From assembly GCA_045627605.1 (NCBI GenBank), contig JAZQOA010000139.1, positions 32,680 through 96,679 of the forward strand: DNA of 64,000 bases, read 5' to 3'. The translations under genes were made by a program, and so were the position numbers. The notes beneath the pieces were generated by a model, which saw nothing but the letters and a program-made list of their open reading frames with translations, searched no databases and was not told the DNA's origin. The number at the start of each line of letters is the position of its first letter. The stretch's first letter is position 1. Shown piece by piece: positions 41,558-59,087 of this stretch. Origin of the DNA: Kiritimatiellia bacterium (lineage in GTDB: Bacteria > Verrucomicrobiota > Kiritimatiellia > RFP12 > JAAYLN01).

Positions 41558-44500
41558 ATGATGAGGAAGTTCGTCAAGTTCGCTGCGGCGTGTGCTGCGG
41601 CGGTGGTGTCGCCAGCGGCTTTTGGCTCTACATATTACATTGCGACGGATGGTGACGACGGCGCGGCGGGGACGCTGGAGGCGCCGCTCAAGTCGCTTTC
41701 GGTCGCGCTGGAGAAGGCGCAGGACGGCGACGTCATCCACATCGGCCCCGGCGACCATATCGGGATGGCAATGACGAGCGCGAACTGCCTTGGCGTCATC
41801 AGCCGTGCGGTGAAGGTCGAGGGCGAAGGCGAGAGTGTGACGATCCTGCACGGTCTGACGAGCGGCAGCGGTGCGCGCCAGCAGGGCATCACGGTTGACA
41901 ACGCCGGGGCGACGGTCAGGAATCTGGCGTTGACGGACCTTTTCTCGTCCTGGACCGACGACGACAGTTCCTACACGACGAAAGGCGCGGCACTGATGGT
42001 CAACGCCGGCACGGCGAGCGTCTGCCGCGTCTTCAACAACAGGACCGGCGGCAACAACGGACGCATCCCGCCCGTGAGGGTCTCGGGCACGGGCGTGCTC
42101 GTCGACTCGATCATCACCAACAACGTGCAGGGCTCTTGGGGCAAGGGCGCGGGCGGCCTCTACCAGGCGGGTGGCGAAGTCAGGCGCTGCCTCATCGCCT
42201 TCAACAAGGGGCCAGAGAAAAACTCGCCGAACGGCGTCTGGGTCGCTGGCGGCACGTTCGCCGACAACGTCGTCTACAAGAATACGCGCCAGAACAGCGG
42301 TCCGTATGGCTTGCAGGCCTCGGGCGGAACCGTTGAGCGGTGCGTCATTGCCGCCAACGAGGGCACGACGGCGGGTCTGGGCGTGACGGGGGCCGCGACG
42401 GTGCGCAACTGCCTCGTCTACGGCAACTCTTCGAGCGCCAACGGCACGGACACGGCTGGCGGCTTGCTCGTCAACAACGCCTCGGCCGTCGTCAGTCACC
42501 TGACGGTCGTCGGCAATACGGGCAAGGGCGGAACGGACGGGGTGCGTGTGAAAGCGGGGGCCGTCGCGGCCAGCGTCTTCTGGGCTAACGGGCTGGTGGA
42601 TTTCACGACGACCGGCGGCACGGTCGGATTCTGCTGCTACCCCGGAGCGACCGGCACGAACATCGACGGCGATCCGCAGTTCTCGCCGGCGACATTCGCC
42701 TATCATCCGTCCGTGGCGGACTACGACGCGTTCAAGGTCGGGCGCTTTTCGCTTTGCCGTGATGGCGCGACAACTGGCGCGAATCTCGCTGCGGACGACC
42801 TTGTCGGCAACCTGCGTCCCGCCTACGGCGAGGCCGGAACGGATTATCCGGACGTCGGCTGCTACGAGCTTCAGCCGGCCGGTGCGGACGAATATTACCT
42901 CGGCATGCGTTCGGACAAGCTGGTGTTGCCGTCCGAGGACAGCGTGACCTTCACGGCCTTCAGCGAAGGTCAGGGAAAGACGGCGTCAAAATACGTGTGG
43001 GCGGTGACGACGAACGGCGTGACGACGTCCGTGACGACAACCGAGCCGTCATTCACGATTGGCCAGGCTCCGGGCGGCGCCTGCTCCGTCACGCTGACGG
43101 CGTATGACGCGAATGGTATCGAGATCGGCCGTGCGACGACGGTCGTGACGGTCAAGCCGCGGACGGTCTACCTGTCGACGGCGGGCAACGCGACCTATCC
43201 GTATGCGACGCCGGAGACGGCTACGGCCAGCCTTTATGAGGCCTTGGCGACGGTATGGACCGAGACGGACCGTCCGGGCCGGATCATCGTGGCGCCGGGA
43301 ACGTATCCGGAGCTCAAGACGCTGGGCAGCGTGACGGCGCCAATCGAAATCATCGGTCCGGACGACCCCGAGACGGCGGTCCTGCGCTTCAAGTCGTCCG
43401 ACTTCTCGGTCGGCTTCGTCCTCGGCCATCCGCAGGCGAAGCTGTCGGGCGTCACGATCAAGGGCACGACCTATTGCGATGTCGATTCGAACTACGTCCT
43501 TGGCGGTGCGCTCCGTATCGAGGACGGTGTCGTCTCCAACTGCGTCATCACCGGCTTCAATACGGCTTCCGGCAGTCGCGGAACGTCCACGCTGGCCGTG
43601 CGCGGCGGTCTCGTCACGCATACTGCCGTCACGAACAATCCGAACAGCTCGGTATTCGCCCGCGGCGTTCTTGGCGTCTACATGGACGGCGGCACGCTGG
43701 AGCATTCGATTATCTCGGACAATCCGTTCTATGGCGACCGGGCTGAGGCCGGGGCACTCTGGCAGAAGGGCGGCACGGTGCGCGACTGTCGCATCGAGCG
43801 CAACACGGTCGCCAACCAGTGCGTCGATGTCGTCGCCGGTGCGCGGATTTCGGGCGGCACGTTCGAGCGTTGCGTCGTCGGATACAACAAGGAGACGAAG
43901 GGCGGTGCGATCACGGTGACTGCGGGCGTCAAGGTCGACGGATCGGCGACAGTCCGGAACGTCCTCATCGTCGGCAACGAGACCGTGGCGACTGCGGCGA
44001 ATTCGGTCGGCGGACTTGCCGTAACGGCGAGCGGAGCTGACGTTTGCCACGTGACCGTGCTGAACAACCTGACGAGCGCGACGATCGGCGGCCTGCGCCT
44101 CGCGGCGGGCACGGTGCGCGGCGCAATCGTAAGCGGCAACCGCAATTCGACGGAGGTCTCGCAGTCGGGCGGTACACTCGCGTATTCCTGCTTCCCGACG
44201 GCTGTGGAGGGGACGGACGGCAACATCGCCGCGTCGCCCAACTTCGAAGACGCGCTCGGACACATCAGCCGCAGCTCGCCCTGCCGAGACGCGGCGAGGT
44301 ACGGCGTGACGCTGGCGGAGGACGACCTGGAGGGGAATCCGCGTGTTCCCTACGGCGAGTCCGACAAGGACTATCCCGACATGGGCTGCTACGAGCTGCA
44401 GGCGTCGAGCGAACTCGTCGCCTCGATCGGCGTCTCGACCGACGACACGTTCGTCGGCGACACGGTCACGCTGACGGTTTCGCTCGAGGGTCCGGACACG

Positions 44501-57700: not shown

Positions 57701-59087
57701 CCTGTCGCCGGAAGGTGAGTGCGGCGAGATCACGAGCTGCACGTGGGATTTCGGCGATGGGGAGTCCGAATCGACGGACAGTCCGGATCCCGTGTCCCAC
57801 ACCTATGCGGACGTCGGCTTCTACACGGTTTCGGTGTCGGTTGAGACGACGCTCAGGGGGACGCTCTCGGCGACGAATTCCCCTGCGGTGCGCATCAAGC
57901 CGTCCGTTGTCTACGTGGCGACGAACGGCACGCACGTCGCACCGTTCCACACCTTGACGACGGCGGCGACCAACATCACTGACGCCTTGAAGGAGCTTGG
58001 CTATCCGACGGACGGCACGCGGGCGAAGGTGATTGTCTCCGATGGCATCTATCCGGCGCCCAGGGAACGCGTGAACCTGTCGACGGCGGTCGAGATCGCC
58101 GGCAATGACGCCGATCCGACGGCGGTCACGATTGACGGCGAGAATGCACGCGAGTTCTTCTTCCTCGACCATGCGCAGGTGTTCGTTCACGGTCTGCGTT
58201 TCTACCGCGGGTATGGAAACTCGTCGGCGAGTTCTGCCGAGGGAGCGCCGACCTATGCCCATGCGCTGTTTGAGATCCGTCAGGGAATTGCGTCAAATTG
58301 CGTATTCGAATCCAACAACAACTGGTTTGCTCCTCTGTCGGCTTGGAAAACCGGCGTTCTGGTCGACTCCCTGATTTCCGGTGGCACCAACCGCGATGGC
58401 AACGGCTATTCCGGCGGCGCGGGTCACGGCGGCGGCATGAAGCTCTTCGACTCGGCGGTCTGCCGCGGCTGCACGTTCACGAATTGCACGGCACGCTGGG
58501 GCGGGGCGCTCGCGATCCGCGGCGGAACGGCCGAGAACTGCACGTTCGTTGGCAATAAGGCGTCTGGCGGGGATAACAACGGCAACTGGGGTGGTGGTGT
58601 CTACCAGACGGCTGGCACGTTGCGCGGTGCGCTTATCGTCGGCAACAAGGCCAACAATGGTGCGGGTGGACTTCATCAGGAAGGCGGCACGGCGGTCAAC
58701 GTGACGATTGCGGACAACGTCTCGCCGGCGTCGGCGGGTGCGAAGGTGGCGGGGACGCTCGTCAACTCGATTGTCGTCGGGAAGGGCGAGTACGATCCGG
58801 CGAATCCGCCGCTTGTCGTGAGCGGCGCGGGCTCGGTCCGAAAATGCTGTTCGCCTTCGCTTGACGCGGCGGACTGCCTGTCGGACGATCCGCGGTTCGT
58901 CCGGCGCGAAGCCGGAAATTACGCTATCCGCAAGTCCTCGAAGTGCGTGGGCTTCGGTGACAACGCGGCATGGCCGAACCTCGAGGCGGCCGTTGACCTA
59001 AGCGGTCAGCCGCGTCTCCGGGGATTGCAAATTGATCTTGGCGGCTACGAGTCGAATGGCGGGGGCTTCCTGATGATCGTGAGATAG
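54741..59087 (+). CDS. giant secreted right-handed beta-helix repeat protein (three modules, two PKD-like domains)
   Basis: I place the start at ATG 54741 (MVNAFRW...); the track start 54687 is TTG. A hydrophobic signal segment LVAVCALVVSGSAMA|ATWWVATDGSD follows a ~35-aa basic extension. PKD-like WDFGDG occurs at nt 56244 and 57744, and DIGAYEYD caps at 56097 and 57597. The C-terminus is ...DLGGYESNGGGFLMIVR. Confidence 0.85.
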   Translation: MVNAFRWAKLGAGKSRIRFDEGEVSSAKSRCGGLLRKGLVAVCALVVSGSAMAATWWVATDGSDAAAGSEEAPFATLSNAFAHASGETRDTIRIKDGTYPSTGAIIVNKAVEIVGNDADRSQVVIDGEKTKALLGISHADVFVHGITFANGGSTATIPNVSHPSFFACNFEMSAGVVSNCTIKSGKSTYTGNLAMMHGAPKLIDCLLDNGAMNDTGSLACRGGGVKMSGSAEMINCVVTNCCAALGAGVYMESSAKLYGCKVVGNRVRSDASNAGLYVSGSAVVSNCVVRDNVTSDAKPAPARGVYQTGGTIINTLITGHASSNGGGVYKTNGSLVNCTVAGNTATTAGAGVYQTNGSIVNTAVGSLTSMDAVKLAGGTASHSCGTGLTTDANGNFGVNPIFRDEANGDYTLKGSSPCVDAGEEKAWHADAKDISGENARVLDGNGDGVAAVDIGAYEYDSTKAPLELSFSAVAEAGDDLPRTTVFKPCFEGAYGEVTKVVWDFGDGTTDERTTLEPVEHQYESAGYFTVKLTVTTTEAGEKTSEMKDAVKIKPTTVYMSTTGSATPPYDSPARATASIADALSALAIPATGRARIIVDDGTYDAPELRQIIDNPIEIVGNDANPTAVTFDGQNARSFAALNHADAFVHGIRVYRAKIGSVSQTVSGCGSYSGSPFEVVKGVISNCVMETCSGGFAGGISVQNNTSAKVYDTLITGITTSDHGSAGYGGGLRVYGGLVQNCVISNSACKYGSGAYVKGGTVRGCLFVDNAGSDAAAGAGIYLEGGTVENCVIVRNKTASGGSGGGAYVCGGTLRNSLVAWNSTPSGTGSGAFLKSGNIQNCTVAENEGGTVCNGVHLTGGTLVNSAVSGVAAPVNIVSGTVKSCCALSLATDATTGNTQAEPGFRDAAAGDFTLLGSSKCVDAGEELPWHADATDLTGETPRVLRGKVAERVDIGAYEYDPSKAPASISFSVTGGEAVVTPHTATFTLSPEGECGEITSCTWDFGDGESESTDSPDPVSHTYADVGFYTVSVSVETTLRGTLSATNSPAVRIKPSVVYVATNGTHVAPFHTLTTAATNITDALKELGYPTDGTRAKVIVSDGIYPAPRERVNLSTAVEIAGNDADPTAVTIDGENAREFFFLDHAQVFVHGLRFYRGYGNSSASSAEGAPTYAHALFEIRQGIASNCVFESNNNWFAPLSAWKTGVLVDSLISGGTNRDGNGYSGGAGHGGGMKLFDSAVCRGCTFTNCTARWGGALAIRGGTAENCTFVGNKASGGDNNGNWGGGVYQTAGTLRGALIVGNKANNGAGGLHQEGGTAVNVTIADNVSPASAGAKVAGTLVNSIVVGKGEYDPANPPLVVSGAGSVRKCCSPSLDAADCLSDDPRFVRREAGNYAIRKSSKCVGFGDNAAWPNLEAAVDLSGQPRLRGLQIDLGGYESNGGGFLMIVR

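Follow-up and report, generated by a model that had tools for sequence, protein, structure and literature searches.

We found that three secreted proteins, P1 to P3, encoded in a 64,000-nucleotide stretch of a Kiritimatiellia bacterium genome (contig JAZQOA010000139.1, positions 32,680 to 96,679; hereafter the window) end in a seven-residue tail, a short hydrophobic run closed by a basic residue, and that this tail recurs directly before the stop codon of proteins from unrelated families. On our best reading, its carriers are beta-rich proteins of Lentisphaeria and Kiritimatiellia that Sec exports to the surface or the extracellular space, and we consider it somewhat probable, at a little better than even chances, that the tail serves there as a modular, lineage-specific tag for sorting or retention that contains no transmembrane segment. 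A putative seven-residue signal of this kind would imply a dedicated receptor, translocon or attachment enzyme in the periplasm or outer membrane; that such a new sorting pathway exists in the two lineages and handles dozens of unrelated cargo families, many of them apparently in polysaccharide-utilisation loci, is a joint claim which we hold more tentatively, at slightly under even chances.

Upon examining the three genes, we observe that P1 (41558..45871, plus strand) encodes 1437 amino acids with three beta-helix modules and Ig-like spacers between them, and that the tail stands behind the last module only. Its signal-peptide-like N-terminus (MMRKFVKFAAACAAAVVSPAAFG, 41558..41626, plus strand) was read from the sequence and not with a dedicated signal-peptide predictor. 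The terminal choice-of-anchor Q cap (NF041518; residues 1389-1427, nucleotides 45722..45838, plus strand) contains DLGCYE at 45818-45835, and linker and tail, SAP-GFIMIVK, occupy 45839..45868 on the same strand, with the core GFIMIVK at 45848-45868 and the stop codon at 45869-45871, so that the protein ends ...DLGCYE-YSAPG-FIMIV-K. Further domains, and no tail, come after the two internal caps, ...DVGCYELQ and ...DMGCYELQ. P3 (54687..59087, plus strand; 1466 amino acids) also has three beta-helix modules, with a PKD domain after each internal one (Pfam matches to PKD and PKD_4) and the tail on the last module only. Its probable start is M19 at nucleotide 54741, according to gene callers on the near-identical metagenome contigs L001 and L002, where the gene is called at 1448 and 1437 amino acids, respectively. 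The core of its terminal cap, DLGGYE (59034..59051, plus strand), was read from the translation and is followed by SNGG-GFLMIVR (59052..59084, plus strand; core tail GFLMIVR at 59064-59084, stop at 59085-59087), giving the end ...DLGGYE-SNGGG-FLMIV-R. P2 (50734..52848, plus strand; 704 amino acids) has a divergent cap, ALGAVQ, at 52789-52806 and a degenerate tail, VLILSIR (52825..52845, plus strand), without Gly at -7 and with Ser at -3 (the last residue being -1), and ends ...ALGAVQ-QLYRND-VLILSI-R. By eye, all three translations begin with a hydrophobic, signal-peptide-like stretch.

The original prediction had placed these three protein ends and the nucleotide ranges of their tails exactly; the shared tail pattern that it described holds for P1 and P3, whereas the P2 end, though quoted correctly, is a degenerate version. 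It had also compared the cap with choice-of-anchor Q. P1 (29.8 bits) and P3 (46.4 bits, with its best stretch at residues 429-478) exceed the NF041518 cutoff of 25 and are members by score, whereas P2 had no NCBIfam or Pfam match, which excludes it by score even though the cap can be aligned with its D.LG..R...LGAVQ. The NF041518 model reaches no further than the Y-E of the cap, so that the tail lies outside it. Among 245 window open reading frames (ORFs) of at least 80 amino acids, P1, P2 and P3 are the only real genes to end in a hydrophobic run plus Lys or Arg; a fourth candidate, the ORF at 14585-15142 (minus strand) ending ...SSCSK, matched only through a looser pattern admitting Ser, Thr and Cys, sits out of frame within a longer minus-strand ORF, and was rejected. 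The core tails of P1 and P3 differ at 5 of 21 nucleotides while the peptides are nearly identical, which points to conservation at the protein level and not to a DNA repeat; the two proteins share 36% identity over the C-terminal ~320 residues and 42% over the last ~250. An exact look-up of P1 returned no database record. The P3 tail is identical in three same-species metagenome contigs (96-98.6% identical), which is evidence neither for nor against conservation. We also rejected a read-through or frameshift into a full transmembrane helix, as the sequence after the P1 and P3 stops is not hydrophobic.

Next, we investigated the conservation of the tail within the beta-helix family. A profile built from the C-terminal 250 residues of P1, P3 and one distant match was searched against 1.84 billion representative proteins and returned 21,536 relatives, of which the best 150, clustered at 50% identity, form the basis of the family counts. 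The original prediction had allowed that the tail might be confined to these paralogues through simple shared ancestry, or be absent from their orthologues; instead, 67 of the 150 representatives (~45%) stop 10-14 residues past the D.G.YE cap, 65 of them after 11-13, with the consensus P-P-x-G-[TL]-h-h-h-h-[RK]-COOH (h, hydrophobic), which describes the motif better than the pattern first proposed. Among the 67 tails, Pro is enriched at -10 and -9 (21 and 22, respectively), Gly occupies -7 in 58, and -6 is Thr in 34 and Leu in 15. Position -5 is Met, Ile, Leu or Val, -4 is Leu, Ile or Phe (hydrophobic in 63, or in 65 with Tyr counted), -3 is Leu, Ile, Val or Phe, and -2 is Val, Leu or Ile (hydrophobic in all 67), while the last residue is Arg in 52 and Lys in 7. 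The hydrophobic requirement is strictest at -2, -4 and -6.

The P2 family behaves alike, with the terminal tail kept in all four homologues (P0152-P0155; 98, 78, 50 and 45% identity). The last three of these end ...APSGFMLQLR, ...EATGFSLMLR and ...VPSGLKLLLR, all canonical, which marks VLILSIR of the window as a degenerate copy. Relatives keep the tail down to 45% identity in this family, and across Lentisphaeria and Kiritimatiellia. The tails of the P2 family alternate clearly as F-x-L-x-L-R and, together with the -2/-4/-6 pattern, would fit an extended strand that docks on something, judging from the sequences. A search with the C-terminal 320 residues of P1 returned a sole match, P0001 (273 amino acids, NCBI source), which ends ...DMGCYEYYRRATIMRLE; its tail, ...ATIMRLE, has the right length but carries a terminal Glu and an Arg at -3, and is either a rare variant or a decayed copy. 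A kinship of GF[IL]MIV to the prepilin motif GFTLIE was rejected, given that the family consensus reads G-T and not G-F and has no Glu at +5. As a separate observation, 30 of the 150 representatives (P0005, P0006, P0010, P0043 and ~26 more) share another C-terminus, ...(F/Y)YR(L/V)xVxLP, which comes after thrombospondin-type-3-like Asp-rich repeats and a ~90-residue region with weak, sub-threshold similarity to the Amuc_1099 family; this end may be another uncatalogued C-terminal sorting domain.

Within the same 150 representatives and the window proteins P1-P3, four hydrophobic residues plus Arg or Lys occur within 16 residues of the cap at 40 of 58 terminal caps, in contrast to 4 of 497 internal caps, and the tail thus belongs to the end of the protein and not to the repeated domain. 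We then scanned one genome per species for the pattern of cap, gap, hhhh, Arg and stop, obtaining at least 120 stretches, with 74 genuine tails among the matches listed. In the neighbourhood of these matches there are two tail genes that lack a cap. One of them, in locus L058, has three Laminin_G_3 stretches (Pfam E = 1.2e-45) and ends ...LLPPPGLFIIVK, and its homologue P0151 (59% identity) ends ...FPPPPGIMIIVR; the tails PPPG-LFIIVK and PPPG-IMIIVR are kept between the two although the residues immediately upstream diverge. The other, in locus L036, encodes a Gly-rich repeat protein ending ...LAGTFFMLR.

A cap-independent scan of metagenome contigs for PPxGThhhhR followed by a stop returned at least 120 stretches, and all counts from it refer to the matches listed. 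The search pattern also admitted TGG, which is not a stop and served as an internal control with an expected stop-to-TGG ratio of ~3:1; we observed 110 real stops against 10 TGG codons. The tail closes 52 ORFs of at least 200 amino acids, whereas the longest ORF before a TGG control has 94 amino acids. The cap is present in only ~11 of these 52 and absent from ~40, and BLAST sorts them into 22 clusters once the tail is masked. Pfam assigned their representatives to Laminin_G_3 (four stretches), Gly_rich_2 with Big_7 (a recurrent family ending ...GGSGIVIIRY..PPKGTVFMMR), fn3 with LTD, DUF2341 with LamG and, in one case, a Pur_ac_phosph_N-like fn3, or to nothing. The tail therefore extends beyond the beta-helix paralogues to LamG, Gly_rich_2, fn3 and DUF2341 proteins. 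Furthermore, it is found on 4 of ~148 neighbouring ORFs that had not been selected by the pattern, with ~0.01 expected from composition. Separately, a 22-residue ORF, YESVSCSSLFRLPPGGTFFIIR*, is identical on five contigs (L142, L144, L158, L174 and L240), several of which come from human-gut metagenomes, and probably reflects a single common organism in which the pattern matched by chance.

Upon partitioning the genuine genome matches by taxonomy, we observe that 64 of the 74 carry a taxonomic label and that 63 of these 64 belong to the Planctomycetes-Verrucomicrobia-Chlamydiae (PVC) group, again among the matches listed. The 64 comprise 34 labelled Lentisphaerae, Lentisphaerales or Victivallales, 11 Kiritimatiellia, 12 Verrucomicrobia or Verrucomicrobiota, 4 'PVC group', 2 metagenome-assembled genomes (MAGs) labelled Akkermansia, and a single 5.7-kb contig in a Lachnospira bin. 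Chance matches that lie out of frame stem from Bacteroidota, Proteobacteria, Firmicutes and other groups, and several MAGs contain four to six strict-pattern matches each. The tail-bearing beta-helix genes binned as Akkermansia muciniphila (L054), Akkermansia sp. (L059) and Lachnospira hominis (L008) are genuine genes, and their placement most likely reflects binning errors rather than a truly wider distribution. The view of the original prediction that this is a distinct, very short tag of the lineage is thus upheld as regards conservation, modularity and restriction to PVC, and needs amending in that the cap is not required.

Additionally, a strongly hydrophobic window occurs within the first 90 residues of 62 of 76 tail ORFs, compared with 88 of 254 control ORFs (Fisher's exact test, p = 2.5e-13), so that carriers are enriched for signal-peptide-like N-termini by this hydropathy proxy. 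Clustering of ~530 neighbouring ORFs revealed DUF4838, LacI/GntR regulators, URO-D-like proteins, esterases and a GH18-like protein. The commonest neighbour is DUF4838 (PF16126; ~850-900 amino acids), with 15 members in 11 loci (L005, L036, L051, L057, L061, L119 and others), and the window itself encodes a GH109-type oxidoreductase at 38560-40035; this suggests that the tail proteins belong to loci for glycan utilisation. In the genome loci, none of 329 genes around the tail genes encodes a PEP-CTERM protein, and the 52 metagenome loci contain no prepilin-like N-terminus.

We next examined the predicted structure of the last P1 module, which AlphaFold2 models with a predicted local distance difference test (pLDDT) score of 85 and a predicted template modelling (pTM) score of 0.90 from a 34-sequence alignment. 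In this model, residues 389-394 have pLDDT below 50, the last block (391-397) averages 48 and no secondary structure is assigned, and the tail is thus not predicted to pack on the beta-helix. The best Foldseek match of the module is the pectate lyase Pel9A (1ru4), with further resemblance to AlgE epimerase A-modules, rhamnogalacturonan lyase and Rhombotarget A. A single-sequence run of the LamG carrier P0151, made without an alignment, reached a pLDDT of 35.6, too low for interpretation.

From these observations we infer a sorting or retention role and a mode of recognition that could operate as follows. The protein would be exported by Sec through its N-terminal signal peptide, after which the short proline-rich linker would keep the last seven residues off the folded domain as an exposed extended strand. 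This strand, with the terminal Arg and its free carboxylate, would be recognised by a dedicated factor in the periplasm or the outer membrane, probably through beta-strand addition, and the factor would then move the protein over the outer membrane or hold it on the cell surface. As the hydrophobic run has 4-5 residues, the tail cannot be a membrane-spanning stop-transfer anchor, and the mechanism must consequently differ from those of PEP-CTERM/exosortase, LPXTG/sortase and GlyGly-CTERM/rhombosortase. Several points weigh against this proposal. A linker of 4-6 residues and the hydrophobic -2/-4/-6 positions would equally suit a strand docked to an adjacent subunit or back on the domain that carries it; the unpacked tail comes from one AlphaFold2 model with 34 sequences, in which low confidence is no proof of disorder; and the N-terminus comparison uses the hydropathy of stop-to-stop ORFs as a crude stand-in for signal-peptide prediction. 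The neighbours of tail genes are of the carbohydrate-utilisation type, and none of the ~530 clustered neighbouring ORFs is a candidate receptor, sortase, translocon or outer-membrane component. Finally, the lineage figures derive from the genome scan, the metagenome matches being without taxonomic label, and carriers were counted in pattern scans and family representatives.

An assembly role is one alternative, in which the tail would be donated by beta-strand exchange to a subunit of the same or another protein, so that oligomers, fibres or a surface layer would be built in the manner of chaperone-usher and type V pilins, whose terminal strands are exchanged between subunits. Such a role would suit a short, strand-like tail rich in beta-branched residues, with its strictest hydrophobic positions at -2, -4 and -6, that stays unpacked in the monomer model and is carried by proteins that are all beta-rich and often clustered paralogues. 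We nevertheless regard it as unlikely, since the carrier folds are unrelated and share no common acceptor groove, no pilin-like partner or usher was seen near the tail genes, and both the near-invariant terminal Arg and the strict terminal position would be left unexplained. It is just as improbable, in our estimation, that the tail acts as an interfacial anchor without any machinery, its five hydrophobic residues dipping into the outer leaflet of the outer membrane or into the periplasmic face of a membrane and its Arg pairing with lipid phosphates. Four or five residues would give very weak partitioning for proteins of 500-1500 amino acids, and a passive anchor would not carry a protein over the outer membrane, nor would it account for the conservation of Gly at -7, of Thr at -6 and of the Pro-Pro linker or for the sharp lineage restriction, even though the run is fully hydrophobic with one basic residue, the short linker would set the domain on the membrane, and no machinery was found nearby.

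Less probable still is an intramolecular element, in which the tail would form the last edge strand and shield or stabilise the final beta-rich domain when no other domain comes after it. The linker is indeed very short, the first strand of the next domain lies at a similar distance past internal caps, and all carriers are beta-rich; AlphaFold2, however, is confident on the domain and yet leaves the tail undocked, one peptide would have to close at least five unrelated folds, the terminal Arg and PPxG linker are conserved whatever the fold, and cap domains in other phyla exist without the tail or with sorting domains in its place. Shared ancestry or chance, by which the tail would be a quirk of three paralogues or the remnant of a truncated PEP-CTERM or LPXTG signal, we consider highly improbable. 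P1 and P3 are paralogues, and the tail does resemble a miniature signal of motif, hydrophobic run and basic end (compare FVPEPSLCVVFLLLAFIVRKNR of P0122 with FVPPPGTILLLR); but its conservation extends to dozens of representatives at or below 50% identity as well as to unrelated families, true stops and neighbouring genes both show a strong enrichment of it, and its length is tightly fixed, which is unlike decay.

Guts, digesters, sediments and the sea all harbour Lentisphaeria and Kiritimatiellia as abundant degraders of polysaccharides, and the tail may bear on how these bacteria export or display their very large beta-helix, LamG and Gly-rich proteins. Were the proposed sorting or retention tag real, the surface and secreted proteome of these mostly uncultured lineages could be predicted straight from sequence, phylogenetic profiling of the tail would give a handle on the matching machinery, and the peptide might also find use as a minimal tag for display or secretion. 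It would also add a mechanistically distinct class to the known C-terminal sorting signals; to our knowledge, the classes currently modelled all use a transmembrane helix or a folded domain.

Between P1 and P2, two CesT-family (PF05932) chaperone genes (49585-50064 and 50064-50519, minus strand) lie directly upstream of a 1222-residue ORF without a Pfam match (45908-49576, minus strand), an arrangement kept in contigs L001 and L002; the locus at 45908-50519 (minus strand) looks like a type III secretion effector with its chaperones. Between P2 and P3 there is a 566-residue ORF without a Pfam match (52855-54555, plus strand), represented in L001 and L002 by a 560-residue gene. Elsewhere in the window, tandem paralogous ORFs of 262 and 234 amino acids (30699-32288, minus strand), which start with the zinc-ribbon motif CPHCGQ...CPTCKG, lie in the stretch of the window with the lowest guanine-cytosine (GC) fraction (0.48, compared with ~0.63 elsewhere), and may on that account be a horizontally acquired island.

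Finally, we compared the tail with known C-terminal signals. Choice-of-anchor Q, as the original prediction had it, lies directly N-terminal to alternative sorting signals that differ by lineage, and this is the case within the family itself. At the position of the tail, members from other lineages carry type IX secretion system (T9SS) type A ends (TIGR04183, 29.9-50.5 bits) and, in one member, a type C end (NF033708, 53.5 bits), these being P0002, P0022, P0035 and P0084, while P0122 and P0092 have PEP-CTERM-like ends, that of P0122 reading FVPEPS-LCVVFLLLAFIV-RKNR, i.e. VPEPS, a transmembrane segment and RKNR. The tail differs from a mere accompaniment of choice-of-anchor Q in that it also occurs without that domain. 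Seven tail C-termini from seven families gave no match to any NCBIfam sorting-signal model at E<=10, whereas synthetic controls matched their own models (PEP-CTERM 36.6, GlyGly-CTERM 25.4 and LPXTG 46.9 bits) and about a dozen related CTERM models; we found no description of the tail in a literature search and no model describing it in NCBIfam or Pfam.

Among the known systems, the tail resembles PEP-CTERM/exosortase (TIGR02595) signals in its position at the extreme C-terminus of Sec-exported surface proteins, in its three parts (a Pro motif, a hydrophobic run and a basic end), in following choice-of-anchor domains, and in its limited range of lineages, its multiple copies per genome and its modular use across unrelated families; FVPPPG-TILLL-R reads as a miniature of a three-part signal such as that of P0122. 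It is not a PEP-CTERM signal, since the hydrophobic run has 4-5 residues instead of ~20, a single terminal Arg or Lys replaces the Arg cluster, and the motif is PPxG[T/L] and not PEP. LPXTG/sortase (TIGR01167) and GlyGly-CTERM/rhombosortase (TIGR03501) signals share with it a Pro/Gly/Thr signature, hydrophobic residues and a basic end, and NGGG-FLMIV-R of P3 looks like a shrunken GlyGly-CTERM, although GGG is not conserved in the family logo; both systems need a signal inserted in the membrane, and the tail, having no transmembrane helix, belongs to neither. The T9SS domains sampled finish in a hydrophobic strand with a mostly basic last residue (...EKVIIK, ...VKLVIK; exceptions are ...KKIIY in P0035 and ...KIVIE in P0084), and RgpB cannot be exported without the final residues of its C-terminal domain. 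However, a T9SS signal is a folded beta-sandwich of 55-100 residues found in Bacteroidota, whereas the tail has 7-11 residues and no fold, occurs in Lentisphaeria and Kiritimatiellia, and lies within the 10-14 residues left after the last folded domain; no T9SS model matched P1-P3 or the tail C-termini.

Type I secretion signals are uncleaved C-terminal regions of ~50 residues on proteins that lack an N-terminal signal peptide and often have RTX repeats; P1-P3 gave no RTX match in NCBIfam or Pfam and, like 62 of the 76 carriers, have hydrophobic N-termini, which sets the tail apart from that class. The original prediction was also right to set aside an autotransporter or outer-membrane barrel beta-signal, as the terminal residue is Arg or Lys in 59 of 67 tails and not aromatic, and no barrel domain lies upstream of the tail in P1-P3 by Pfam and NCBIfam or in the AlphaFold2 model of P1. 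The tail would nonetheless resemble the BamA beta-signal if it forms a short beta-strand at the terminus that is recognised along with the free carboxylate, and it has conserved hydrophobic residues at -2, -4 and -6, with the difference that -3 and -5 of the tail are mostly hydrophobic as well; recognition of YxF-COOH by the DegS PDZ domain is another example of reading a C-terminal peptide. Overall, although it matches none of the catalogued classes tested, the tail is terminal, modular, multi-copy, lineage-restricted and found on exported proteins, as such signals are.

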